From Bacteroidota bacterium (GTDB taxonomy: Bacteria > Bacteroidota > Ignavibacteria > UBA10030 > UBA6906): a DNA stretch of 64,000 bases. The position numbers were made by a program, and so were the translations under genes. Shown one piece after another: positions 26,920-40,209 of this stretch. Positions within the stretch are counted from its first letter, which is position 1. Every line of letters starts with the position of its first letter. The stretch is from NCBI GenBank assembly GCA_019637975.1, contig JAHBUR010000004.1, forward strand, positions 32,209 through 96,208. The letters run 5' to 3'. The notes under the pieces are model-generated. The model ran no database searches. It was given only the letters and a program-made list of their open reading frames with translations, and was not told the origin of the DNA.

Positions 26920-27135
26920 TCCTGTTCCGGGCACAGCCCAAGGGGTATCGTTCACGCGGTACCCCTTGCTGTTTTGGATTGACGCAGCGAGCACGATCCC
27001 TCCAAAAACAGAAATGCCCCGCACGTCTGCGGGGCATCTTATTTTGTTCTTTGCATTGTACTTCTCATGTTATCTCTAACATCAGATACTCCGCAATCGC
27101 GGCGGTGTGCACACGGAAGTCGCCGCGCTGTATCT
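26920..27135. repeat. copy B of the ~218-bp direct repeat (3'UTR/terminator module of the 27151..27732 gene)
   Basis: Aligns end to end with 17295..17512. It has the same minus-sense hairpin, gccccgcagacgtgcggggc + tttctgtttttgg. Confidence 0.8.
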
Positions 27136-27150
27136 TCCCTACCAGCGGAT

Positions 27151-27732
27151 CTACTGCACGGTCTCCGTCTTCGTTCCGATGTTGCCGGGACGGTCGTTAG
27201 CCGTTACCACAACAGAGTACGCCTGTCCCGCAGGGACCTGCGCTGTTGCGGTATAGACCCACCGGTCGAGCAAGCCTCCCTCCTTCACCGCGTTGCCGCT
27301 TTCCACTTCGTTGCCGTTCGCGTCGTTGATGCGGACTTTGACGCTCGTGACTTCGAAGTCGTCTGTGGCACCGATGATGATTGTGCCTCCGGGCTCACGG
27401 TTGTACTGCGAGAGGTCGATGGAGTTGACCTCGGGAGCATTCAGGTAATCGCCGGAGATGAGACCAGCTACGGGACGGTTTCTGAGTTTTGCCGCCTCGT
27501 CGTACGGTGCACGGGCTTCCGGATCGGCAGCAACAAGTTTCACGTAGCGCCCCGCAAGACGCACGCGGGCTTGCTGTGTAACCTGCTTCTCCGTAAACGG
27601 GGCGTTCCGTTTCGGCTTGCGCCGCATCCCCGCTTTCCCGTAGCTCTCGTAGAAGACGACGTTTCCCATCCGGCCCGAGAGACCGTCGAGGAATGAGCCT
27701 AACCTTGGAGTTGCCATTGTAGTACCTTTCAA
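27151..27732 (-). CDS. hypothetical protein with an Ig-like beta-rich C-terminus
   Basis: 193-aa ORF followed by the terminator module. No catalytic motif. Confidence 0.5.
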   Translation of the reverse strand: MKGTTMATPRLGSFLDGLSGRMGNVVFYESYGKAGMRRKPKRNAPFTEKQVTQQARVRLAGRYVKLVAADPEARAPYDEAAKLRNRPVAGLISGDYLNAPEVNSIDLSQYNREPGGTIIIGATDDFEVTSVKVRINDANGNEVESGNAVKEGGLLDRWVYTATAQVPAGQAYSVVVTANDRPGNIGTKTETVQ

Positions 27733-27847
27733 TTAGTGGTTGATGTATGATTTAGGTATTCACTCCGGCCTGAGTGTTTTCTTCGTCGTCGTGCAATGCC
27801 CGGAACCACTCACTACTCCGGGCGTATCTCTCCGGTGTACTTGTCTC

Positions 27848-27925
27848 AAAGAACATTTCTTGCTACTTGTCCGCTACTTCCTTGCTATCTTGTCGCTACT
27901 TGCTTGCTACCTTGTTGCCTTTCCG
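27848..27925. repeat. CTTGCTAC(C)TTGT short tandem repeats
   Basis: cttgctacttgtccgctacttccttgctatcttgtcgctacttgcttgctaccttgttgcc. Confidence 0.6.
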
Positions 27926-28099
27926 TTGCTTTTTGGTATTGACTGTTGACGATCTCTACAGATCGGTTACACAGATGGCGTGCCAAAACAATTCGTTGCT
28001 GAAGTGTAGCAAGAAAATTGAGGATGGGGATCTGAGAGAGGTAAAAATGGGGATGTACTTCTTTCCTCAGAGGAAAATTTTGCACCGGCGGCTCGTGAC

Positions 28100-28545
28100 C
28101 GGGGCGTGTGTACACGCGGCTCTCGAAACACACCCCCCGCCTCCGTTTCACTTCGGCGCGGCAGGCCTCCGTCTCCCCTCTCGCAAACGCTCACGCCAAC
28201 ACACAGAGGGGAGTGTGTTCACCGGATTTTCTTTACCGCGCTCAATCCCATTCCCCTCTTGCCTGCCCGCCGTCTTTGTGGCGGGAGAGGGCTTGCCCCG
28301 ACGGAGCGCTTTTGGCGCAGTCGGGGTGTCCCGACGAAGCACGCTTTTGCGTAGTCGGACGGGGTGTGACAATCGCATCTCAGATTCAGCGCTCAACAAC
28401 TACTCCCCTCTTTGTGCTGGCATGTGTGCTGGGGAGAGGGCTTGCCCCGACGGAGCCGCTTTTTGGCGCAGTCGGGGTGTCCCGATGATCCCGACTTGTC
28501 GGGAGAATCGGGACGGGGTGTGTTCCGCGCCCACTTGCAGCAATC
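28100..28545. repeat. hairpin-rich region with two ~100-bp direct repeat units (CCCGAC/GTCGGG stems)
   Basis: Units at ~28290 and ~28433 share ggagagggcttgccccgacggagc(c)gcttttggcgcagtcggggtgtcccga... Perfect palindrome gtcggggtgtcccgac. A ctcccctct...agaggggag hairpin at ~28160. Confidence 0.6.
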
Positions 28546-28685
28546 AACCCACCGGGGATTGGCAATCAGGACAACAAGAAGAAAAAAGTCCCACGAGCAG
28601 CCCCGGCAAAACCGATTTGGCGGTCTGTAACGGCGCAGGGAGTGTCGTATTTGCCGTGACAGCCGAGAGTAAGCAGTACGTTTCT

Positions 28686-29138
28686 TCAGGGTTGGCGTGA
28701 GCGTTTTGTCTTTGATTCTGCGTGCCCCAGCACTTCACGGCATAGCTGGACAAATTCTGCCAGGCTGAGATCACTCTTTGCATCGTTCACGCGCCATGAG
28801 CAGATCCTAAAGTTCGGTGCATCCATACCATCGTCCACGTGATCGACGGTTGGCAGGTCGCCAAAGTTCTTCTTATACGCTCTTCCGCCAGCTTGAGCTG
28901 CATCATTATCGTAACGGGAAATGAGTTCCCATTTGAGTGGAAGACCAGTGTACGCATCCACACCATTGCTCGCTGTGACAGCTGCGTGAATGGCTTTCTT
29001 GTAACTCCCAACCTTTGCAGTAGTATTCCCGCGCTTTCTGTCCCGGCGGACATGGGCATTCGCTTTTGCATGCAACCATTTCTGGTATACACGCTCGGAG
29101 CACTTGCCATGAAGAAAGAAAGGTAAGGTGTACTTCAT
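28686..29138 (-). CDS. small HNH-like endonuclease candidate (150 aa)
   Basis: TVDHVDDGMDAPNFRICSWRVNDAKSDL fits a degenerate HNH pattern (D-H...N-x3-C...N-xx-K). Last gene of the cluster headed by the PtuA-like ATPase. Confidence 0.35.
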   Translation of the reverse strand: MKYTLPFFLHGKCSERVYQKWLHAKANAHVRRDRKRGNTTAKVGSYKKAIHAAVTASNGVDAYTGLPLKWELISRYDNDAAQAGGRAYKKNFGDLPTVDHVDDGMDAPNFRICSWRVNDAKSDLSLAEFVQLCREVLGHAESKTKRSRQP

Positions 29139-30061
29139 GAGCTCTCCTTGGTGCCGACAACGATACTTTCATCAACGAGTTCAAAGGGTGATGTCTCACG
29201 TTGGTAGTTAGCCCAATGAGAACGGTACTGAGTCTGCTCAAGCAAGTGCATGTCAACGTTGTCCCCATCAGGGCCTTCATCCAGCCCCCATTCGACCAGA
29301 ACACCTCCAAGATTTGTCAAGATAAACCTTGGATGCATTCTTTTTCCTCCCGCACCTTGTTCCCAAGCTTCAAACCTCTTCCAACGAACGAAATTGACGC
29401 TGAGAACTTTTGGAATAATATTCCCCAAGAGCTGGGTGCACCCCTTTGAAAACTTCGCCTTGTCCAGATTGCCCGAAGCAAGCAGGTGATATTCGATTCT
29501 CGTCTTTTGAACAGTGCCGCGAGCAACTTTGCCGAGGAACAACTCAAGGGGTCTTCGAAATCTCTCCTCGGCTGCGTCGAAGTGTGCATCAACGAAGAGA
29601 ATCTCAGTACTCATCTGAAGCAAACGACCGATTGCAGCTGCCATCGGCTCTGCTTTCCGTTGTACATTCCGCTGGCGGGGCGTGTTCCACAGCGGCGTCT
29701 CTTCCGATAGATCCTTCGCTATGAGAATATTCGGATGGCTTCGTGGGTTCTGATAGGAAACAATAGCATGAAACGGTTCCGCTTTGTGTGCCTGCTCTGC
29801 ATTTGCCAACCAATCAAGAGTTTCCGAGTAGTGACGATCGGTCTTGCAGAGCCGGTCGCCTATTGTGTGGAGCCTTTCTTCGATTCGTTTGAGTTCGATT
29901 TCCTTGCAGGCCTTTTTGCATGCCCGATAGACTACACGTTTCCATTTCTCGGGGTACTCGGCGATAATACGGCCATTGTGGACACCGCAATGGTCGACAA
30001 CGTAGCGGAAGTCTTGCCAGTTACTGATGGAGGCCGGCTCGATTGCATATTCGAATACCAT
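29135..30061 (-). CDS. hypothetical protein (middle gene of the AAA-ATPase cluster)
   Basis: 308-324 aa depending on the start. The MVFEY start at 30061 abuts the stop of the upstream ATPase gene. The Cys/His-rich segment DHCGVHNGRII...YRACKKACKE might bind zinc. Confidence 0.5.
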   Translation of the reverse strand: MVFEYAIEPASISNWQDFRYVVDHCGVHNGRIIAEYPEKWKRVVYRACKKACKEIELKRIEERLHTIGDRLCKTDRHYSETLDWLANAEQAHKAEPFHAIVSYQNPRSHPNILIAKDLSEETPLWNTPRQRNVQRKAEPMAAAIGRLLQMSTEILFVDAHFDAAEERFRRPLELFLGKVARGTVQKTRIEYHLLASGNLDKAKFSKGCTQLLGNIIPKVLSVNFVRWKRFEAWEQGAGGKRMHPRFILTNLGGVLVEWGLDEGPDGDNVDMHLLEQTQYRSHWANYQRETSPFELVDESIVVGTKESS

Positions 30062-30063
30062 GG

Positions 30064-31767
30064 CTAGAACAGCTCCTCCGCCCGCTCTGCGAAGAAACCG
30101 CCGGGCCATTTCTGTACGAAGTCTCCCTCCGGCGTGATATCTAATGGAATCACCGCAGAACCATTGGCTCCGGGCTGAACATAAAGAACCTGAACATCAT
30201 TCGGGGTTATGTCGGGAACTTTTTTCTCGGAGCTTTCCCTGATCCTTCGCAGAATCCTCAGTATCAAATGCTCACTATGCGTCTCCAAGATAAACGTGTT
30301 CTTCCGTTCACCCAAAGCAGACTCAATGAACACATCGCCGAGTTCGGCTTGCAAGGCCGGGTGAAGATGAATTTCCGGCTGTTCGATGGCAATAGTCTTC
30401 TTCTCATTTGCAAACGCATAAACGAGAACTGGCAATGCTTGGCTTATACCTATTCCCACGTCACGATGGCTGACGGGTGTGTCTGTGCGCAGGTCAATCA
30501 ACACGAGGTCTCTGATTTGGTCGGGTGATGTTTGAGCAAGTTTTCTTGCCAACTCTTGTCCTCGCGAAGGCTCACGAAAGAATGCTTCAATTTCTTCTTT
30601 CGTGGCCTTTTTCATTTCCACTTGAGAGAGATCGATTCTCTCAAGCAGACGGTCATTGTACTCGTCAAACATCGCATCGAGTTCTTCAGAGAGGTAGGTA
30701 TCAGCGATGAGATCTCTCACGACAAGGGCGTAGGGGGTTGAGAGACGGTCGGGGCCAAGCCAATTGTTGACCATGTTGCGAACTTCAAAATTGCGACGAA
30801 CAATGTCCCAAGCGTATCCTCCGCCGGCTTGCCAGTTGGCATCGAGTTCCTTGGAGAAGGCAAGATGTCGCTCCGGATAGGAACGTAACGGCCCGAGGTA
30901 AACGATAGACGAAAGCCAGGATTCGAGCTCTTTTGTAGAAGACAACACCATATCTGAGAGCTTGCCCGGAAGGAACAGATCGATTGCCGCATTGATATCG
31001 TCTGTACGCGTACTGCGCCCAACTGGAATTATTCTGTCGGGGCCTTCCTCCGGTCCCTCCCCGGCAAACCCCAGTTGGGCAGGAAGTATCCCTTTGAAGA
31101 AGACGCCGGCGCTTGCCATGAACTCAACAAGATGGGCCTGCACTTGCTTCACGTCATGATCACTTGTCACAGTTACCGTAGTTGACATAAGAACAAGTGC
31201 TTGTATCAACTCCACTATCAATGGATGCGAAGCGATGAGGTTAAGTTTGTACATGCCATTCTTCGGACTGCTGACTTGCGCAATATCCTTGCCGTCGACT
31301 GCAATTGAAAAGGATTCCACGCGCGGAATACCGACCGGCACAAGGTTTCCCGTTGGAACTCTGATCGTTACAGGTTTTCCTGTACGTGGATCCGTGGATT
31401 CCTTTTCCACCATTTCTTCCTTGTGCTCCAAACCAATCAATATCTCGAATCGTATTGTGGAACCCGCGTGAAAGACGGAGAACGATTCGGGGGCAATCAT
31501 CTCAAAACAGAGTGAGAGTCGCCTCATTGAATCAGTTCTATGGATGTACTGTCTGAAACCTCCCAGATCGACGGCATCACCGCCTACCTGCGTGTGGCTG
31601 ATATCAAGCTTTCCAGTCTTGGTTGCTTCATTTGCCAGAAGCAGGGAGTGGATAATACTCGACTTTCCCGAACTGTTCGCCCCAAAAATAAGCGTGAGCG
31701 GACGAATGGGGATGGTCTGCGTTTCTGCAAACGCTTTGAAGTTGCCGAGGCGGAGGGATTTGATCAT
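30064..31767 (-). CDS. ABC/SMC-like AAA_15/AAA_21 ATPase with a DUF3696-like C-terminus (PtuA-like, Septu-type)
   Basis: Walker A LTLIFGANSSGKSSI. Walker B/D-loop KKTIAIEQPEIHLHPALQ. H-loop ILETHSEHL. C-terminal PNDVQVLYVQPG...AVIPLDITPEGDFVQKWPGGFF, as I recall for DUF3696. Confidence 0.6.
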   Translation of the reverse strand: MIKSLRLGNFKAFAETQTIPIRPLTLIFGANSSGKSSIIHSLLLANEATKTGKLDISHTQVGGDAVDLGGFRQYIHRTDSMRRLSLCFEMIAPESFSVFHAGSTIRFEILIGLEHKEEMVEKESTDPRTGKPVTIRVPTGNLVPVGIPRVESFSIAVDGKDIAQVSSPKNGMYKLNLIASHPLIVELIQALVLMSTTVTVTSDHDVKQVQAHLVEFMASAGVFFKGILPAQLGFAGEGPEEGPDRIIPVGRSTRTDDINAAIDLFLPGKLSDMVLSSTKELESWLSSIVYLGPLRSYPERHLAFSKELDANWQAGGGYAWDIVRRNFEVRNMVNNWLGPDRLSTPYALVVRDLIADTYLSEELDAMFDEYNDRLLERIDLSQVEMKKATKEEIEAFFREPSRGQELARKLAQTSPDQIRDLVLIDLRTDTPVSHRDVGIGISQALPVLVYAFANEKKTIAIEQPEIHLHPALQAELGDVFIESALGERKNTFILETHSEHLILRILRRIRESSEKKVPDITPNDVQVLYVQPGANGSAVIPLDITPEGDFVQKWPGGFFAERAEELF

Positions 31768-31818
31768 TGCGGATTGCGGATTATGGATTTCGGATTGTGG
31801 TTGTTGGGTTCTGTGGTT

Positions 31819-31866
31819 TCGACCTCACCCCCGTCCCCTCTCCTCGGAGGAGAGGGGTGGGTTGTG
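31819..31866. repeat. GC-rich compound palindrome (REP/MITE-like; CGACCTC-CCCC family)
   Basis: cgacctcacccccgtcccctctcctcggaggagaggggtgggttgtg. The inner CCCCTCTCCT/AGGAGAGGGG stem is perfect. Confidence 0.6.
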
Positions 31867-31910
31867 CTCAGTTATTCTGCCCCTGAAGGCAGTACACATT
31901 CGTTTCATGT

Positions 31911-31997
31911 CGAACTCATCCCCCGCCCCCTTCTCTTTCAAAGAGAAGGGGAGGTTTGTGCGCGGATTCGATAAGTCCCTCTCTTCACAAGAGAGGG
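31911..31997. repeat. two further GC-rich palindromic elements of the same family
   Basis: cgaactcatcccccgcccccttctctttcaaagagaagggggaggtttgtg and ccctctcttcacaagagaggg. A half copy, cgaactcatcccccgcccccttctctt, lies at 32511..32537. Confidence 0.6.
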
Positions 31998-32042
31998 ATT
32001 TAGGGTGAGTTCCATCGGGTGTGAGTTGATTCAAGAAACACC

Positions 32043-32495
32043 TCAATTATTCTGCCCCGGCAACCCCTTGGGATAGAGCAGCACAACATCCGGCGTTTGC
32101 GGGGTCTGTTTGATTTTCCGTTCAGCATCTTTTCTGTCACGTGCTATTGCTGCTTCGATTTTCTTTCTCAACTCAGGATGCGCGTCCAAACTCTCGTTGC
32201 GTTCTTCAAGCTTCTCCATTACTGCCCAATACGTTTTGTTGTAGTGAGGATAGCATTTCTCCTCAAGCTCCAGCGAGAGTTGCTCGCCTAACTTCGGACC
32301 CTCATTGTCCAACACCCAATGGTTCTCAATATCTGCACGGAGCGTGACGAGGACCGGCGACCTGAGCCTGATGATGAGCTTGCGTGAGATAGGGCCGACT
32401 TCATCAAAGAGCCACGCGGCTTCATCTTTGTTCTTTGCGCTGCAAACGCTGACCGTTCCGTCAGCCCAGCGGTAGGCGTAGGTGGGCATGGGCAA
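32043..32495 (-). CDS. hypothetical protein (150 aa)
   Basis: ORF flanked on both sides by cgaactcatcccccgcccccttctctt elements. Confidence 0.45.
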   Translation of the reverse strand: MPMPTYAYRWADGTVSVCSAKNKDEAAWLFDEVGPISRKLIIRLRSPVLVTLRADIENHWVLDNEGPKLGEQLSLELEEKCYPHYNKTYWAVMEKLEERNESLDAHPELRKKIEAAIARDRKDAERKIKQTPQTPDVVLLYPKGLPGQNN

Positions 32496-32558
32496 CCTCT
32501 CACTTTTTGTTATCCTCTTCCGAACTCATCCCCCGCCCCCTTCTCTTAGACTCAATGA

Positions 32559-34553
32559 CTACTCAGAAACATGAAAGAACCGTCTGAGAAGTGATTCTAT
32601 CCGAAATTCGACAGCGTTCTGCCATTGCTTTACGTACCATCCCCAAACAAGCCCAGCGACGCCAGATACCCAAACAATGCCGCCAATGATTCGGGCCCAT
32701 ATTCCCGTGATTATCGTCCCAATCATAAAAGGACACACTAGCAGGACAACAATCGAAAAGATGAAAAAGACTTTGCCGACTATTAGAGCAATTGTCTTGG
32801 CACGTCCGCGTAGGGCGAGCATGAGTTCTCGTTGCCTAGTTTCGGATTCTTCTAGACGAACTTGAACTTGTGTCTTCTCAGCGTGGACCGCCGCAATTTC
32901 CTGTGAAGCTTCACCTCTTATTTTCTCAATTTTCGCTTCCGCTTCACTTGCATATGATTCCTTTACACGGTTGACAACCTCTGTTAGAGTAGTCGAATCA
33001 GGCTCGACATCTTCATCAAATTGGGAAAGAAGATTCTCCGTTAATTCGCTTGCAATTACCGCGACCATTTCATCATCGTTGATTCGGTTTTCCGTGCGCA
33101 TGTTTTGTAGATGCTTGACAAACAAATCCCACGTTCTTTGCGATGGCACCAGAGCTGCAGAGCATAACGCAATTAGTTCATTGAGCTTGAGGTCTGCAAT
33201 CGCAGTAGGTTTTTTAAGCCAGGCTATGCTTGAAAGAGCCGAACTGTGAATAACTGGGTAAACACCGATTTGGCCTTGACCCCTGAACCATTCTTTTACA
33301 TTCTTAACTAATAGCCCAGTAGTTGTTACAAATACCGCCTTTGCTGAGTCGTATGATTGTGGATGACGCCCCTTCCGCACTGTGAGCACAGACGCAACAC
33401 AATCTACATCGTGAACTACCCGTGGTTCGGTGTCACTTTCTGCTGGGCGTTTCAATCTTCGTGTTAGGTCAGCCTCATCAAGAGTGAATTTGTCAATATG
33501 GTCCGGCACTGGCACTATTCGAAACCCCAAGTCTCGAAGGTGTGAACGAAGCATCGCTGACTCTTCACGTACATCGCTGGGCGAGTAGCGTCGAGCAAGA
33601 AGGTGCCTTGTAATCGGATAAGCGCGAAGTGTTTCAATTCCTTTCTGGGTTGCCAAATGGCGCTCATACACATGAAGAATTCTCCTGATTTCCTCCACCG
33701 TCGTATCGAAGACTGCCAAAGAAACGTTGGTAACTTTTAGTAAATCTAGGGATTCTCTTGCGGCCACTTTTGCTGCGTCGCCTGTAAGTCCCAATGCATT
33801 AAGTAGAAACGCCGTATCAAAATATGCGGTCAGATCTTTGAATCTGCTTTGCGCTGTTGATATGTCCTTGAGTAGTAAGGCATTTTGAAGGACATATCCT
33901 TCAAGCACGCGTCGAACAATCCGCCGCAATTCTTGATTTGCAAGGCACTCAGCCAGTACGAACCTAGCTACGATCCTCAATTCTTTCGTCCCTAGTGAAC
34001 GAAATTGGTCTTGGAAGACTGGGCCGCCGCCCTCATCTGTGGAGGGATCAAGTAGTAATTCTACGTGAAATTGTGAGATGAATTCGAAGAGAAGAGCGAG
34101 TGCATCGTCCTCGTTTTGCAACTTTAAGTTGTGTTGTTGCGCATGATGCATGAGAGCTTTTGCGATGACTGCATGCTCGGTTTGAATTTCACTCAACCGT
34201 TTGCTAATATCAGGCGTCGTTGTTCGTGATACTTTATCACGAAAGTAACGACCACCTTCTCGTCGGACAAGCTTGCGTTTGCTAGCCCGTGTCAAAAGCA
34301 TTTGCATCGACGTAGTCGGAATTTTCAGACCGTAACGTTCAGTCAGTAGGTTTCTCATGTCTTGCGCTGAAAAGTCATCATACGGAAAGCATATTATGCA
34401 ATCGGCGACGAATGGAAGAAGCATATCGAGGTGATCTATCCCCGAGTCATAGTTTGCCTTCAGCAATGCAAGAGTGGCCAAGCCTTTGGCAAGTTTGTGT
34501 GATGACAGCACAGACACTGAAGCGTTTTTCATGTTTCCTGCAACTCCTCTCAA
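32559..34553 (-). CDS. hypothetical 657-664-aa protein with a C-terminal transmembrane anchor, encoded directly downstream of hsdS
   Basis: Large, mostly helical ORF with a C-terminal hydrophobic stretch (IALIVGKVFFIFSIVVLLVCPFMIGTIITGIWARIIGGIVWVSGVAGLVWGW). An alternative start is at 34532. Confidence 0.55.
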   Translation of the reverse strand: MRGVAGNMKNASVSVLSSHKLAKGLATLALLKANYDSGIDHLDMLLPFVADCIICFPYDDFSAQDMRNLLTERYGLKIPTTSMQMLLTRASKRKLVRREGGRYFRDKVSRTTTPDISKRLSEIQTEHAVIAKALMHHAQQHNLKLQNEDDALALLFEFISQFHVELLLDPSTDEGGGPVFQDQFRSLGTKELRIVARFVLAECLANQELRRIVRRVLEGYVLQNALLLKDISTAQSRFKDLTAYFDTAFLLNALGLTGDAAKVAARESLDLLKVTNVSLAVFDTTVEEIRRILHVYERHLATQKGIETLRAYPITRHLLARRYSPSDVREESAMLRSHLRDLGFRIVPVPDHIDKFTLDEADLTRRLKRPAESDTEPRVVHDVDCVASVLTVRKGRHPQSYDSAKAVFVTTTGLLVKNVKEWFRGQGQIGVYPVIHSSALSSIAWLKKPTAIADLKLNELIALCSAALVPSQRTWDLFVKHLQNMRTENRINDDEMVAVIASELTENLLSQFDEDVEPDSTTLTEVVNRVKESYASEAEAKIEKIRGEASQEIAAVHAEKTQVQVRLEESETRQRELMLALRGRAKTIALIVGKVFFIFSIVVLLVCPFMIGTIITGIWARIIGGIVWVSGVAGLVWGWYVKQWQNAVEFRIESLLRRFFHVSE

Positions 34554-34560
34554 GAAGTCC

Positions 34561-35706
34561 TTAGAAATTTCGTGTTTCCCTCCACCCCTTCGTCAACTCC
34601 CCCGTGAAGGCGCGGTGAAGCAGCACCGAAAACAACTTTTCCAGATTGTCTTTCGCTTCCGTCCTCGTGTACGCTTGCTCTTCAAGCATCTCCACTTGTT
34701 CCCCAAACTCCTTTTGTTTGTCAATCGACGGGACAAGAATTTCAATCGGGTAGATGCGGCTGCCCGAAATCAGTGGCTGGCCCGCACGACCGGCGTACTG
34801 GTTCAGGTTGGCCATTCTCAGCGCTTCAGTCAAGTATCTGTCGAGTAGCTCTTCGCTTTTCTCGGCAACATAGAGTGCATTATCTGTAACCCAGCATTTG
34901 GGCTTTGAGTAATACACCGCGCCGCAATAAACACCAACTCGACCGATAACGACGACAGGATTTTCGAACATAAACTCTGTATGATAGCCGTTGATACCAT
35001 TCCCGCCGTATACGGGGTAGCCTTCTGTTGGATGAAGACTTTTGACTGCGACGCCTTCTCCACTTTTGACTCTGATGAGATCACCCAGTTTCTTCTTAGT
35101 CAACCCCTTCTCATTCCTCACCGGGTCCCCAAACATCTTGTAGAACAGCGCCGGGAGAATCCGCTCGGCGAGTTGGTCTGCTTCGCGGCGGAGTTTGCGC
35201 AGCGCATCCGCCTGGTCGAGTATCTCCACTATCCGCCGCTGCTCGGGGGGCGAGGGGAGGGGAATTTTCAACGATGAATACTCAGTCCCGTTTATATTCG
35301 GCTGCCCAGCAACTCGCTTCTTACTCAGAACCCAATTACTATACGTTGACGACTGAGTGAAGTAGAAGACGTAGCGAGAGTCTGCAAGTGCCGGATTCAC
35401 TCGGAACCTGATCATGTACCCCGCAAAGATACTTCTCCCGTCCTTTGATGAATAGCGATACGACTTTCCTACGGTGTTGCCGCTTCTGGCAAACAACAAA
35501 TCTCCTTCTTCCAATATGAATTCGCTCTCATCATCTATATCCGCCTCTACTGCATCGTCAGGCCGAAGGTTCCCACTTTCGTCAATGTCAGTGATACGTA
35601 TGTATCTCGGCCGCAAACCCGACCAATCAATCGCTTTCGCGTTTGCTCCATATTGGGGGCCTAGAATTGATATTTTTCCAAGCGGAAGAGTCTGCCAGTC
35701 GCTCAT
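34561..35706 (-). CDS. hsdS: Type I restriction-modification specificity subunit
   Basis: Two target-recognition domains separated by the conserved IPLPSPPEQRRIVEILDQADALR spacer motif. The start overlaps the hsdM stop. Confidence 0.85.
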   Translation of the reverse strand: MSDWQTLPLGKISILGPQYGANAKAIDWSGLRPRYIRITDIDESGNLRPDDAVEADIDDESEFILEEGDLLFARSGNTVGKSYRYSSKDGRSIFAGYMIRFRVNPALADSRYVFYFTQSSTYSNWVLSKKRVAGQPNINGTEYSSLKIPLPSPPEQRRIVEILDQADALRKLRREADQLAERILPALFYKMFGDPVRNEKGLTKKKLGDLIRVKSGEGVAVKSLHPTEGYPVYGGNGINGYHTEFMFENPVVVIGRVGVYCGAVYYSKPKCWVTDNALYVAEKSEELLDRYLTEALRMANLNQYAGRAGQPLISGSRIYPIEILVPSIDKQKEFGEQVEMLEEQAYTRTEAKDNLEKLFSVLLHRAFTGELTKGWRETRNF

Positions 35707-37457
35707 TACTCCACATCCTTTAGTAACTTCCGCAAGGCTTCCGTTATTCGCTGTTCAACTCCTATTGTTTCACAAATCAGTTGAGTTGGATCATCAGTCG
35801 GCGCCTTCTCCGCCACCTGAGGCTTGTACCGTCCCGCCGCAAGGTTGTAATCCTCGGCGGCAATCCGCTCAACCGTTGCCCACCAGCATTTGGGTTCTTC
35901 GGTTCCGGCCTCGAGCAGTGTGCCTGCTTCAACTCCGGGTGGCGCGGTGAAGTCGGAGGATTTGTATGTCTTCCATTGCCTGAGCAGGTCGGGAATGTCG
36001 TTCAACTCCGGTGTTTCCACGCGTCCGCCTCCGCTGATCTTGTCGGGGTCGAAGCCGTCGTTTTTGATTTCGTAGAACCAGATTTTGCGTTGGTCGTTCG
36101 ACCTCCCCCCATCCCCCTCCTTCGTAAGGAGGGGGAGTGAGGGGGTGGTCGGCCTCCTAAACACCAGCACCCCCGTCTTCACCCCCGCATACGGCTTGAA
36201 GACTCCCGCCGGAAGAGAGACGATGGCGAGGAGGTTGTATTCTTCAATGAGCTTCCGGCGCAATTCAACGTGCGCGCTTGTCGAGCCGAAGAGGAGTCCT
36301 TCGGGTACCACAACGGCACAGCGGCCGCCGGGGGCAAGGGCTTCCATCATCACGCCCAAGAACAGCAGCTCGCTTTTCTTCGAGTTGGTGGGAAGGTCCT
36401 TGCGGATGGATTCCTTCGGCAGCACACCGGCAAACGGCGGGTTGGAGAGAATCACTTTGTACCTGCGCCGCAGGTCTTCGTCGGAAAGTCCGCCAAGGTC
36501 GGAGAGTGCATTCGCCCGCTTGATGTTTGCCCTCGGCACGCCGTGCAACACCATGTTCATCGTCGCAATGCGCATCATCTGGCGGCTGACATCGTTGCCG
36601 TAGAGTGAGGCCTCGAGCAATTCCCAGTTGGGGACTTTGTCGCCGTTACCCTTGCGGTAAGTCTGGAGCTTGGGTATCTGTTGCTTAAGCTTTTCGATGA
36701 AACCGGGGGGCAATTCAATGTCATCTCCGTTTCCTGCCCGTCCGTTAGGCGGGCAGTTCTTCTTCAATCCCATCTTCTCGCGATACTTGTCCACCATCCA
36801 CTCTTCGCCGTAAATAGGGACTTCAACCGGCTTCTCGGAGTACTTGGCAAGAACGTAATCGAGCGTGTCAATCAGGAAGCCCGCTGTGCCGCATGCCGGA
36901 TCATAGACTGTATCGCCGAAATCGGGCTCCACTAATTCCACCATCATAGCCCGTATCTGGCGCGGTGTGCGGAACTGTCCGTTGAGTGCCGACTGCCCGA
37001 GATGCGTCAGCAGGTACTCGAAGATGTCTCCCTTCTCATCAGGCCCCAACTTGCGGAAGTTGATGCCGTCAATTTCATCAATCACCTGCTTCAGCACGTT
37101 CGGGTCAACGATTTCAAGAACGGCGTCACGGAAGTACTCGGCAATGTGCGGCTCGTCTTTGAGAAGGCTGTTCGCCATATAGTTGAACACCTCATCGCGG
37201 ACGAACTTCACGAGCTTCTCGCCGCTGTTGAAGCGCCACTTGCTCCAGCGGTATCGCTCGGCCTGGTCCGGAAAGAGACGCCTGCCGTTGCCGCCGGCTA
37301 ACCTGCCCTGCAGTTCACGGGAGTTCTCTTCCTCATCCAACAGTTTCAAGTAGATGAGATAGGATATCTGTTCGATGTACGTGACCGGGTTGGTAACTCC
37401 TCCGGCCCACAGGACATCGGTAATGCGATCAAGTTTACGACGGATTTCGGTGTTCAT
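35706..37457 (-). CDS. hsdM: Type I R-M N6-adenine DNA methyltransferase subunit, carrying an in-frame palindromic-element insertion
   Basis: NPPF motif (ILSNPPFAG), SAM-binding DPACGTAGF and a typical HsdM N-terminal domain. The 36099..36152 element encodes TTPSLPLLTKEGDGGRSND. Confidence 0.85.
   Translation of the reverse strand: MNTEIRRKLDRITDVLWAGGVTNPVTYIEQISYLIYLKLLDEEENSRELQGRLAGGNGRRLFPDQAERYRWSKWRFNSGEKLVKFVRDEVFNYMANSLLKDEPHIAEYFRDAVLEIVDPNVLKQVIDEIDGINFRKLGPDEKGDIFEYLLTHLGQSALNGQFRTPRQIRAMMVELVEPDFGDTVYDPACGTAGFLIDTLDYVLAKYSEKPVEVPIYGEEWMVDKYREKMGLKKNCPPNGRAGNGDDIELPPGFIEKLKQQIPKLQTYRKGNGDKVPNWELLEASLYGNDVSRQMMRIATMNMVLHGVPRANIKRANALSDLGGLSDEDLRRRYKVILSNPPFAGVLPKESIRKDLPTNSKKSELLFLGVMMEALAPGGRCAVVVPEGLLFGSTSAHVELRRKLIEEYNLLAIVSLPAGVFKPYAGVKTGVLVFRRPTTPSLPLLTKEGDGGRSNDQRKIWFYEIKNDGFDPDKISGGGRVETPELNDIPDLLRQWKTYKSSDFTAPPGVEAGTLLEAGTEEPKCWWATVERIAAEDYNLAAGRYKPQVAEKAPTDDPTQLICETIGVEQRITEALRKLLKDVE
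36099..36152. repeat. 54-bp GC-rich compound palindrome inserted in-frame in hsdM
   Basis: cgacctccccccatccccctccttcgtaaggagggggagtgagggggtggtcgg; the length is a multiple of 3. Confidence 0.75.
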
Positions 37458-37909
37458 GTGTTGTGTTGGTTCATGGTTCTGCGACCTCCCCCAACCCCCT
37501 CCTTATGTAAGGAGGGGGCAAGGGGGTGGTCGGCATCTTGCAAAGCAGAATGCCTCTCAATGGCACGATGTATCTTGTCTACGACTGCATCTACATTCCC
37601 TTCAACTTCCTCGTTGCGAAATCTTAAAAACCAAATATGAAACTGCTCAATGTACTTCTGCCGGTCACGGTCAGACTCTTGAGCCTCCGGGCCGTCGTGG
37701 CTCTCACCGTCAACTTCGATTGCGAGCTTCAGTTCAGGACAATAGAAGTCCAGAACAAAGGCACCAACGCTGAATTGACGCCGGAACTTGAACCCTCCGA
37801 GTTGCCGTCCTTTCAATTGTTGCCAGAGAATCCGTTCGGTGGCGGTCATGTTGTTGCGCAGGAATCGCCGTTTGGTCTTCTCGGAGGATCTGTTGTAGAA
37901 CAGGGTCAC
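37454..37909 (-). CDS. DUF559/Vsr-like endonuclease-domain protein with a C-terminal extension created by a palindromic element
   Basis: ILWQQLKGRQLGGFKFRRQ...VLDFYCPELKLAIEVDGESH is typical of DUF559. The tail ...PLAPSLHKEGVGGGRRT is encoded by element 37483..37533. Overlaps the hsdR stop and the hsdM start by 4 nt each. Confidence 0.7.
   Translation of the reverse strand: MTLFYNRSSEKTKRRFLRNNMTATERILWQQLKGRQLGGFKFRRQFSVGAFVLDFYCPELKLAIEVDGESHDGPEAQESDRDRQKYIEQFHIWFLRFRNEEVEGNVDAVVDKIHRAIERHSALQDADHPLAPSLHKEGVGGGRRTMNQHNT
37483..37533. repeat. 51-bp GC-rich compound palindrome, same family as 36099..36152, inside coding sequence
   Basis: cgacctcccccaaccccctccttatgtaaggagggggcaagggggtggtcgg. 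Confidence 0.75.
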
Positions 37910-40209
37910 GCCGCGCTCTTCGTAAACACAGTTTCATTCAAATCATTCACAACGTCTCTCAAGCCTTGCTCGCCAAACAACTCGATGCCCAGACCTGCGG
38001 CGTTGAGTATCGAAAGGGGCGGCTTGAACAGATCCTCCATATCCACTTTGCCTTTGGCAATGCCACGGTTCTTGAGAAGGGAAAGATATTGCGCCTGTTC
38101 GGGGGTGAGCGACTTCGTTACCAGCCACGCCTGGAAGTTCTCGACAATCTCTTCCTCGCGGCTTTTCACTTTTGACCCGCTAAGAACTTCCTTGATGAAA
38201 TCAATGAGCGTCCCCGCAGGCTTGCGGTATGCCCGCCTCAGGTTATCCTCGTTGAAGTACATCCTTGGCTGGTTCAGCCGTTGAGAAAGTTCGTTTTCCT
38301 CCTCTTGTGTCAAGGCATAGCGTTCACGTTCATCCTCGTTTGCCGCTTCGGCCTGTCTGCGAATCTTCTGGAGAATCGGATCATCGGGCGCCGTTTTCTT
38401 GATGGTGTCTTCCCACGTGGACTGATACTCGCGACGATCAATACGTTCTCCATTGATGCCCACTTCGACATACTCAACGCTGTAGAGCCATTCGTCCTGA
38501 AGGCCAAGCTCAACCAGCTCACGCGCTGTCTTGGGTCGTGATGGAGTCCCTCCGCCGGAATAGCCCCCGGTACCTGTGAATACATCCGTGTCGCTGTCAT
38601 TGAAATACTGATGATTCCCGAAGAAGTCATAGATAACAAACTTCCGCTTGTCAATCTTCGGGCATGTTCTTGTGCCGCGTCCCCGCATTTGCTGGTAGAG
38701 AATCGGTGACCGGACACGGCGGCACATCACCAGATGAAGAATCTCGCGGCAATCGAAGCCGGTGTCCAACATTCCAACGCTGACGGCTACCATCGGGTAC
38801 GTTTCGTTCTTGAACTTGCGAATCAGATCGTCGGCGTTCGGTATGTCGCTGGTAATGACTTCGGCATAGCGGCCCTTGAGATCGGGATGAAGACTGTTCA
38901 GGATCGCCGTAAGTCGTGCGGCATGATTCTTTGTAATTGCAAAGACCACAGATTTCCCCGGACCGACCTGCTGTCCGGGGGCAAGCTCTTGGTAGTTCTG
39001 CCACGCGAGTCTGTCGAACTCTTCCATCATGAGACGGTTGGACTTTTCGTTCGTCCACTTCTTCTCAAATTCGGCGGGGTCGTAATGTTCTTCGTCGACA
39101 TCCGCACCCTTTGCAAGGATAACGGTAATCCCTTCAGCGAATTTGTATGGCGCCAGATAGCCGTCTTTGAAGGCGTCTTGAATTCTGAAAGAGAAGTCAG
39201 GCTCTTCGTTCTTACAGTTGTAGAACTGGAACGTATTCCGCTCAATGTACATTGCCGGAGTTGCGGTAAGTCCGATATGCAGAGCATCGAAATGGGTCAG
39301 GGCCGTTTGCCATGCGCCATAGATTGAGCGGTGGCACTCGTCCGCAACAACGACATCAAAGTACCCGCTCGAAAAATCCTGGTAGCGTGAGGTCATCGTC
39401 TGCAAGAGGCAAACGGTGATTTGTTGCTCCTGCCGCTCGCCACCCGATTTCAGCCAGTAGCTGCCGTGAGTGGTCAGCAAGTCCTGCAGCGCTTCAAGAG
39501 CCTGTTTCGCAAGCTGCTCCCGGTCAACAAGGAAGAGAATTCTCTCAGCGCGTCCGGCTTCGATCAGCCGTTTCAGGTACAGCGCGACAAGATCGGTCTT
39601 TCCGGTTCCGGTCGGAAGCTCAATAAGGAACCGTCGCTTACCAAGCTCCACAGCATGGTCAAGCGCTTGCATCGCCTCCTTCTGGTAGCTCCGAACCTCC
39701 CGTTGCTCACCCTGTCTGATGTAGAAATCCGGAATGGGAATCGTTGCGAGCGGCTTTCTCTCTTCACGAAGGTGGAGAATCTTTTCAAGATCCCTCTGCG
39801 AGAAAAACGAATTGACGATACGGGCATCATCATTCGTGTAGTCCCAGAAGTAGATCAGTTCGCCATTCGTCAGGAAAATGAACGGGGCATTCAGACTCTT
39901 GGCATAAGGCAGGGCCTGCTGCTTTGCAATGTAGGGGTGAAGGGCTTCTTTCTTCGCTTCGATAACGGCAAGCGGGCGACCGTTTTGCCCGCAAAGGACA
40001 TAGTCTGCAAAACCGGTTGGGTGTGCAGAGGAAAAATCCGCTGGCCTGGCAGCCGGTGTAGGGTTATAGCCCGGCGTCGGCTCCGCCACGTTCTGCGAGC
40101 CAAAAATCGGGACCTGAGTCCGAACTTGTTGCTTGTCGTTCAGGTCCCAACCAACAGCTTTGAGTTGTTCGTCTATCTTGATGCGAGCGTCTTGTTCAGA
40201 TGGAGACAT
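37906..40209 (-). CDS. hsdR: Type I restriction enzyme R subunit (SF2 helicase-nuclease), short form, 767 aa
   Basis: N-terminal PD-(D/E)xK-like VIEAKK. Helicase motif I ELPTGTGKT and motif II VVADECHRS. AGGGGA SD before the ATG. Confidence 0.8.
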   Translation of the reverse strand: MSPSEQDARIKIDEQLKAVGWDLNDKQQVRTQVPIFGSQNVAEPTPGYNPTPAARPADFSSAHPTGFADYVLCGQNGRPLAVIEAKKEALHPYIAKQQALPYAKSLNAPFIFLTNGELIYFWDYTNDDARIVNSFFSQRDLEKILHLREERKPLATIPIPDFYIRQGEQREVRSYQKEAMQALDHAVELGKRRFLIELPTGTGKTDLVALYLKRLIEAGRAERILFLVDREQLAKQALEALQDLLTTHGSYWLKSGGERQEQQITVCLLQTMTSRYQDFSSGYFDVVVADECHRSIYGAWQTALTHFDALHIGLTATPAMYIERNTFQFYNCKNEEPDFSFRIQDAFKDGYLAPYKFAEGITVILAKGADVDEEHYDPAEFEKKWTNEKSNRLMMEEFDRLAWQNYQELAPGQQVGPGKSVVFAITKNHAARLTAILNSLHPDLKGRYAEVITSDIPNADDLIRKFKNETYPMVAVSVGMLDTGFDCREILHLVMCRRVRSPILYQQMRGRGTRTCPKIDKRKFVIYDFFGNHQYFNDSDTDVFTGTGGYSGGGTPSRPKTARELVELGLQDEWLYSVEYVEVGINGERIDRREYQSTWEDTIKKTAPDDPILQKIRRQAEAANEDERERYALTQEEENELSQRLNQPRMYFNEDNLRRAYRKPAGTLIDFIKEVLSGSKVKSREEEIVENFQAWLVTKSLTPEQAQYLSLLKNRGIAKGKVDMEDLFKPPLSILNAAGLGIELFGEQGLRDVVNDLNETVFTKSAA

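Follow-up and report, generated by a model that had tools for sequence, protein, structure and literature searches.

An NsnB/HEC-03-type ATPase and a PLD-fold partner at the 3′ end of a type I restriction-modification operon in a Bacteroidota bacterium

Three adjacent open reading frames (ORFs), genes A, B, and C, occupy positions 28686–31767 of a 64,000-nt stretch of Bacteroidota DNA (GenBank assembly GCA_019637975.1, contig JAHBUR010000004.1, positions 32,209–96,208 of the forward strand), which is called the window throughout. Genes A and B probably (probability about 0.6) form a two-gene anti-phage module that is related to NsnB-NsnC and HEC-03, has no NsnA, and closes a type I restriction-modification (R-M) operon at the 3′ end; gene C is separate from it. 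A encodes an ATP-binding cassette (ABC) ATPase and B a protein with a phospholipase D (PLD)-fold domain. This pair of an ATPase and a candidate PLD-type nuclease is widespread and unnamed, and nearly always ends type I R-M operons.

The ATPase and its PLD-fold partner

The three genes are as follows.

30064–31767, minus strand: gene A, 567 aa, NsnB/HEC-03-type ABC ATPase with a C-terminal DUF3696 helix
29135–30061, minus strand: gene B, 308 aa, effector candidate with an N-terminal domain and a C-terminal PLD-fold domain
28686–29138, minus strand: gene C, 150 aa, His-Me finger (HNH/endonuclease VII-like) protein

All three are read in the same direction, and their positions and lengths agree with a preliminary description of the locus. 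Gene A matches Pfam AAA_15 (4.5e-24) and AAA_21 (2e-17). The DUF3696-like tail given in that description was recovered, barely above the Pfam cut-off (22.5 bits against 22). PADLOC models ranked NsnB (3.9e-44), PDC-M55A (1.1e-40), HEC-03B (1.5e-40), and AriA (4.1e-26) as matches to A. The PADLOC PtuA model gave a local match of about 55 residues (446–502) at 1.7e-8, and the NCBIfam PtuA equivalog NF041760 scored 20 bits (cut-off, 500), over residues 2–42 only.

The Walker A motif of A is ordinary (G29–S36, with K35), and the H-loop histidine is H497. Three other positions deviate from those of ABC ATPases: E462-Q463 take the position of D-E in Walker B, R295 replaces Gln at the Q-loop position, and G438-I-G440 replaces the signature motif. 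NsnB is described with the same three deviations, a change of the Walker B DE to E-N/Q, a Q-loop Arg, and a GxG signature (PMC12065111). On these sequence comparisons, A is an NsnB/HEC-03/PDC-M55-like ATPase and not the PtuA-type ATPase proposed at first.

A word-indexed search found only nine relatives of B. A full profile search recovered 2,969 cluster representatives at E ≤ 1e-3 and 1,164 at E ≤ 1e-30, nearly all about 300 aa long and matched along their full length. The family carries the RefSeq label "hypothetical protein," and neither B nor its relatives can be placed in a Pfam, NCBIfam, or PADLOC family. Profile searches of B and C against PDB sequences gave chance matches only. B comprises an N-terminal domain (residues ~1–125) and a C-terminal PLD-fold domain (~130–308). 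Residues 130–308 are confident in the AlphaFold2 model, with block means of the predicted local distance difference test score (pLDDT) mostly 75–94. Foldseek comparison with PDB returned 12 matches at E ≤ 1e-3, all to PLD-fold proteins. The top neighbors are BJ-TSA-9, a Streptomyces PLD, and the MIT_C domain of MITD1, followed by SauUSI and PLD3 (E of about 2e-4 to 3e-3).

All 47 diverse family members compared keep H243 and R245; D158, T249, G253, and D261 are near-invariant. D158 follows a strand (FVDPxF), and H243-x-R245 precedes a strand; G259-L-D261 comes after H243-x-R245. The C-terminal domain has both the fold and the His-x-Lys/Arg...Asp/Asn motif of the PLD superfamily, and its catalysis is predicted only. 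PB-PLD1, MIT_C, and the BrxL C-terminus have the same active-site layout, and the PB-PLD1 class occurs among NsnC effectors (PMC12065111). A few B-family members gave weak matches to Pfam MIT_C (0.0047), PADLOC BrxL (2.6e-6), and NsnC (0.014). Based on the structural model, the C-terminal half of B is a PLD-type domain, a candidate nuclease, and the likely effector of the A-B pair. The locus had been taken for an ABC ATPase and nuclease cluster of the anti-phage kind, and the NsnB/HEC-03-type A and PLD-fold B agree with this. The Cys/His-rich character ascribed to the middle gene proved of little use; the 308 residues of B include 5 Cys and 12 His, and only H98 and H243 are conserved.

None of the three genes is a chance ORF, because each has many full-length homologs. 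The frame of gene B is open back to position 30109 (324 aa), and all homologs start at M17, which gives 308 aa, as in the identical protein that NCBI annotates in a Bacteroidetes metagenome-assembled genome. NCBI annotates only 101 aa for gene C; the family alignment spans residues 2–143. The genes are tightly packed, with TAG-CC-ATG at the A/B junction and a shared ATGA where B and C overlap. A promoter and terminator consensus scan of the cluster did no better than in shuffled sequence. No Rfam match to a structured RNA, the retron-type RNA of Septu type II included, was found across positions 27000–34700.

Linkage to type I restriction-modification operons

A homolog of A directly precedes B wherever upstream DNA is present in the genome loci (L001, L002, L003, L091–L098, L180, and L181). 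The same arrangement is found in two RefSeq plasmids and in all informative loci among 80 metagenome contigs. These contigs were retrieved with a seven-sequence sub-alignment of B, and 29 loci were informative, having the whole of A and 1 kb or more of sequence beyond it on the upstream side. Gene B had been described as an extra gene between ptuA and ptuB and is instead the invariably linked partner of A.

A type I R-M operon, a context absent from the preliminary description, lies directly upstream of the A-B region in the window.

34561–40209, minus strand: type I R-M operon (Pfam HSDR_N/ResIII/EcoEI_R_C, HsdM_N/N6_Mtase, and Methylase_S)
37906–40209, minus strand: hsdR, with an EcoEI_R_C domain
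37454–37909, minus strand: DUF559 gene (Vsr-like endonuclease fold), embedded between hsdR and hsdM
35706–37457, minus strand: hsdM, assigned by Pfam
34561–35706, minus strand: hsdS, assigned by Pfam

The order in the window is hsdR, DUF559 gene, hsdM, hsdS, U664, U150, A, B, and C, all on one strand; U664 and U150 are inserts described below. About 90% of the informative metagenome loci (26 of 29) have a co-directional hsdS upstream of A, mostly with hsdM and hsdR before hsdS. Among the 27 loci with a recovered hsdS, 16 have <100 nt between hsdS and A. Most genome loci show the linkage as well; A-B is linked to R-M genes in the window, L001, L093, L094, L095, L097, L098, and L180. Geomonas subterranea (L093), a Chlorobium metagenome-assembled genome (MAG; L097), L095/96, and L180 have the order hsdR-hsdM-hsdS-A-B. 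A Methylocella tundrae plasmid encodes WYL-hsdR-hsdM-hsdS-"AAA family ATPase"-"hypothetical protein."

No DUF262 gene was found in any A-B locus, using precomputed Pfam domains of called genes (L001, L003, L091, and L093–L098) and our own scans of upstream ORFs. NsnA (ParB-DUF262 plus ParBDB) was not found here or in any related locus examined. No description of an hsdR-hsdM-hsdS-ATPase-PLD arrangement was found in the literature, the coverage of which was incomplete and excluded the 2020 ABC ATPase classification (Krishnan et al.).

A-B may go with a single lineage of type I systems. An EcoEI_R_C domain is present in the A-B-linked HsdR in all four cases with Pfam domains (L093, L095, L097, and the window), with the order hsdR-hsdM-hsdS. 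Larger gaps between hsdS and A are filled by other embedded defense genes (L146 and L166). The gap genes of these loci encode either an 868-aa AAA_13 ABC ATPase or an AAA_15-Toprim ABC ATPase of the OLD type, so that one R-M operon can be followed by several ATPase-nuclease modules in a row.

Gene C and the inserts around the cluster

The 150-aa product of gene C had been described as having a degenerate HNH motif (DH...NFRICSWRVNDAK). The motif is present, and a nuclease is plausible. It forms the most conserved part of the family (TVDH...NFRICSWRVNDAK), in which D99, H100, C113, N118, and K121 are invariant. The AlphaFold2 model is confident (pLDDT 95) and contains a beta-beta-alpha unit, with strands at 96–100 and 110–114 followed by a helix carrying N118 and K121. 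In this unit, whose first strand ends in D99-H100 and whose helix bears N118, gene C resembles T4 endonuclease VII and HNH proteins. It differs from them in its own basic helical N-terminal half and in its zinc ligands, which are lost because the family has DAYTG where HNH proteins have CxYCG. It also differs in matching neither Pfam HNH nor Endonuclease_7 at E ≤ 10.

PHROG 1035 (endonuclease VII) was matched by 26 of 30 C-family members, with a best value of 8.8e-9 and a value of 3.9e-6 over residues 19–142 for C of the window. PHROG 3322 (endonuclease) was matched by 20 of the 30. Foldseek matches of C to PDB were weak; the best was a Gme HNH nicking enzyme (E = 0.31), followed by Cas9 HNH domains. 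Fold matches in BFVD were mostly unnamed, with a few HNH endonucleases. No NCBIfam or PADLOC match to C was found, and neither B nor C matched any PADLOC model, PtuB included, at E ≤ 1. T4 endonuclease VII belongs to the His-Me finger enzymes, and together with the PHROG matches this makes C a likely degenerate HNH/His-Me nuclease, as judged from its sequence and model.

The C family comprises >510 clusters at ~55–65% identity. Species-representative genomes that encode it number 237 and span most bacterial phyla, with 52–62% identity across them; it also occurs in MAGs assigned to Thermoplasmata (archaeon) and Saccharimonadales (candidate phyla radiation). Only one viral contig carries it. 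A and B were absent from all 80 genomic C loci examined, and C was absent from all other A-B loci examined (>40). L001, the closest relative of the window locus, retains a remnant of C at the same position, with in-frame stops and the catalytic motif gone, and has intact A and B. Neighbors of C share no family and include housekeeping operons, TIR, AbiJ, PIN, NYN, restriction genes, integrases, and IS200. Inside housekeeping operons, C is found as RuvC-C-RuvA with 4-nt overlaps (L046), C-RuvA (L062), and PhoH-C-YbeY (L064). A search for conserved, transposon-like DNA ends downstream of C genes found no k-mers above control regions.

Gene C is a passenger gene behind B in this lineage and is not needed by the A-B module. 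The first view of the three genes as one system thus holds for A and B and fails for C, which is absent from other A-B loci and a pseudogene in L001. The C family has the look of a nuclease gene that is transferred promiscuously and is possibly selfish. A few C-family proteins (L025 P0123 and P0020) share a conserved N-terminal extension of ~100 aa (TITYTHTRLAFIRDEIEPLEVF...), which might be a targeting domain.

Other features of the cluster and its flanks are listed below.

32559–34553, minus strand: U664, 664 aa, between hsdS and A
32043–32495, minus strand: U150, 150 aa, between hsdS and A
31911–31937 and 32521–32547: perfect direct repeat of 27 nt (minus-strand sequence AAGAGAAGGGGGCGGGGGATGAGTTCG); the pair brackets U150
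28185–28706: GC-rich, repeat-rich element of 522 bp with a perfect 16-nt inverted repeat at its ends (28185–28200 and 28691–28706)

U664 and U150 have no Pfam, NCBIfam, or PADLOC family match; they are inserts specific to the lineage and do not belong to the core. The only other A-B locus examined that has a counterpart of U150 is L001 (83% identity, upstream of A), and U664 was absent from all other A-B loci examined. The GC content at third codon positions (GC3) of U664 is 0.42, compared with 0.52–0.71 in its neighbors. U664 has a coiled-coil-like region and a strongly hydrophobic C-terminus that is probably membrane-spanning, and it may be another embedded defense gene because of its place between hsdS and A-B. 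The 27-nt direct repeat has two copies in the window, with none expected by chance. GC-rich hairpins lie nearby at 31826–31866 and 31972–32002. Repeats and hairpins together suggest that U150 arrived as a cassette.

The 522-bp element holds two copies of a ~57-nt repeat (28283–28340 and 28432–28488). It folds well beyond shuffled controls (RNA fold z = -4.4), has no Rfam match, and looks like a miniature inverted-repeat transposable element (MITE) or a repetitive extragenic palindrome (REP). Because one inverted-repeat arm encodes the last codons of C, the element may have replaced the native 3′ end of that gene.

Relation to known systems and proposed function

Menshen (NsnA-NsnB-NsnC; Millman et al. 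2022) resembles the A-B pair in several respects. Gene A is NsnB-like by its best hidden Markov model (HMM) match, its DUF3696 tail, and its motif deviations. The order is ATPase, then effector, and B has the NsnC-type layout of an N-terminal adaptor-like domain and a C-terminal effector. The PLD domain of B also fits the description of PB-PLD1, with an acidic residue after a strand and H-D/x-R. In contrast to Menshen, A-B lacks NsnA in all loci examined, and the PADLOC NsnC model misses B. R-M linkage is ~90% for A-B, whereas 27.9% of the operons of Menshen have links to any of BREX, type I/III R-M, or methylase genes. The pair cannot be filed as Menshen because the defining component, NsnA, was looked for and is absent.

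HEC-03, the closest validated relative of A-B, consists of two genes that are both required for phage protection, and it is toxic upon induction (Payne et al., bioRxiv 10.1101/2024.01.29.577857). Like A-B, it pairs an ATPase of this clade with a nuclease-domain partner, has no third sensor gene, and is embedded in another defense system. B has a PLD fold, unlike the VapC-like PIN protein that is the partner in HEC-03, and HEC-03 was found inside Hma systems, whereas A-B closes type I R-M operons. The PADLOC candidate PDC-M55 is similar in its ATPase, PDC-M55A; no counterpart of PDC-M55B was found with A. The HEC-03 partner model was unmatched by B and 46 relatives, and the PDC-M55B model by B or any of the 47 family members. 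The pair cannot be filed as either system because both partner models are unmatched.

PARIS (AriA-AriB) and PrrC/RloC combine an ABC ATPase with a latent nuclease and provide the best analogy for the tie of A-B to hsdRMS. PARIS responds to Ocr, an anti-restriction protein, and PrrC, whose gene lies within a type I R-M locus, is set off by inhibition of the restriction enzyme. Gene A also matches the AriA model, as reported above. The effectors of these systems differ from B, being Toprim (AriB) and an anticodon nuclease (PrrC), AriA lacks the DUF3696 tail of A, and A-B has no known trigger. Septu (PtuA-PtuB) is similar in having an ABC ATPase oligomer that clamps a nuclease between C-terminal domains. 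It differs in that the conserved partner of A is a PLD-fold protein and not HNH, that A fails the PtuA equivalog model, and that C is unrelated to PtuB and not linked to A.

For the contact between A and B, the trigger, the substrate, and the defense function, we infer the following. A would oligomerize and hold the N-terminal domain of B via its C-terminal DUF3696 helices, keeping the PLD domain (D158, H243-x-R245) silent. An infection cue would alter the nucleotide state of A. As with PARIS and PrrC, and given the linkage, the cue would most likely be a phage protein that attacks the restriction enzyme or mimics its substrate. B would then be released or activated and degrade nucleic acid, and the infection would be aborted. 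These four steps are proposed because of the two-gene requirement of HEC-03 and the clamp models of Menshen, Septu, and PARIS. In AlphaFold3 models of Menshen, DUF3696 helix pairs of an NsnB tetramer surround the N-terminal domain of NsnC, and comparable clamps of an ATPase dimer and a nuclease are described in Septu and PARIS (PMC12065111).

Interference with R-M, or an anti-restriction protein, would be the most economical trigger because there is no DUF262 sensor and about nine of ten loci are inherited with hsdRMS. The parallel with PrrC and PARIS is an analogy for the trigger, not evidence. In a more specific form of this proposal, the type I restriction enzyme stands in for NsnA, and A monitors R-M integrity or binds anti-restriction proteins and releases the MIT_C-type PLD nuclease. 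This form is tentative, and we consider it rather unlikely as stated.

Several points weigh against A-B being an NsnB-NsnC/HEC-03-related defense module at the end of an R-M operon. Free-standing A-B pairs occur in 3 of the 29 informative metagenome loci and in genome loci L003 and L091, and L169 also stands alone. Co-inheritance is all that the linkage to R-M shows; functional coupling does not follow from it. The pLDDT is <50 over much of residues 1–128 of B, and for this domain an inPIN-like fold and a DUF3696 contact are conjectural. The homology of B and NsnC rests on fold, motif, and gene order, because the NsnC, HEC-03 partner, and PDC-M55B models give no useful E-values; only one of 47 B-family members matched the PADLOC NsnC model, at 0.014. 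The motif of B has Arg where catalytic PLDs have Lys. MITD1 and BJ-TSA-9, the closest solved relatives of its PLD subtype, are not known to be nucleases, and the nearest solved domains of the MIT_C type are not known to be enzymes.

The Arg in the motif would also fit a B that is not a nuclease, in which the MIT_C-like PLD domain binds or hydrolyzes membrane phospholipid and kills by membrane damage. MITD1 MIT_C and bacterial phospholipases D are among the top structural neighbors of B, and the C-terminal domain of MITD1 binds membranes. This is improbable, given that the invariant His and Arg and the acidic residues suggest a conserved phosphate-handling site, that the PLD-fold nucleases SauUSI and PLD3 are among the matches, and that no transmembrane or amphipathic segment was noticed in B. 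Partners of this ATPase clade are also overwhelmingly nucleases (PMC12065111; bioRxiv 10.1101/2024.01.29.577857). Strict co-inheritance with hsdRMS and the toxicity of HEC-03 upon induction (bioRxiv 10.1101/2024.01.29.577857) could instead point to an addiction or stabilization cassette of the R-M operon, or to a general stress toxin, without phage sensing. The phage-specific protection given by the related HEC-03 (bioRxiv 10.1101/2024.01.29.577857) and the free-standing pairs L003, L091, and L169 make this quite unlikely. A canonical Menshen system with a diverged NsnA would need U664 or another upstream gene in that role. U664 is on the same strand and has a very weak AbiEi/wHTH-like match (0.021), so DNA binding is conceivable. 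Neither U664 nor U150 matches DUF262 or ParB, however, and U664 is missing from other A-B loci and has a differing GC3. Most loci leave no room for a third gene, because hsdS lies within 100 nt of A, and we regard this reading as very improbable.

The remaining alternatives give gene C a role. In a lineage-specific three-gene system, C would have been recruited as a second nuclease with A-B in this Bacteroidota lineage. The ATGA overlap couples C to B, and the remnant in L001 makes the arrangement older than the split of the two loci. The L001 copy is nevertheless stopped and without its motif beside an intact A-B, and C is coupled equally tightly to RuvC/RuvA and PhoH/YbeY. Tight coupling is therefore a habit of C anywhere and no sign of partnership, and the chance of such a system is small. 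In a Septu variant, A would be PtuA, C a short degenerate PtuB HNH protein, and B an added accessory gene. The weak local PtuA match, the His-Me/HNH-like nature of C, and the co-directional, translationally coupled genes of the window favor it. The NsnB, HEC-03, and PDC-M55 models nonetheless score >30 orders of magnitude better than PtuA, with NF041760 far below its cut-off. C has no PtuB match, is missing from >40 other A-B loci, is a pseudogene in the nearest, and has neither A nor B beside it in 80 loci of its own. A Septu variant is extremely improbable, and the assignment to Septu is contradicted by HMM scores and gene linkage. The preliminary description had called the locus a Septu-like cluster with an HNH-like protein and had left a choice between a Septu variant and a distinct ATPase-nuclease system; the second is retained and the first is dropped.

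As an A-B defense module, about 3,000 cluster representatives of B, now "hypothetical protein" in RefSeq, would gain a role as its effector. If A-B works without NsnA, the NsnB-NsnC core would be an autonomous sensor-effector unit. For annotation, a DUF3696 ATPase beside an HNH-like ORF should not be named Septu. The order hsdR-hsdM-hsdS-A-B in ~90% of informative loci suggests a second-line immunity coupled to the restriction enzyme, which to our knowledge has been worked out for few systems so far, PrrC and PARIS. If the restriction enzyme does stand in for NsnA, A-B would act as a guard of type I R-M with a PLD effector, in analogy to these two. With this pair, the question whether the PLD domain of MIT_C type, found in the BrxL C-terminus and human MITD1, is an enzyme also becomes accessible in bacteria. 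Were A-B such a guard, it would provide the first catalytic role assigned to the H-x-R domain of this type that the BrxL C-terminus and eukaryotic MITD1 have in common with B.

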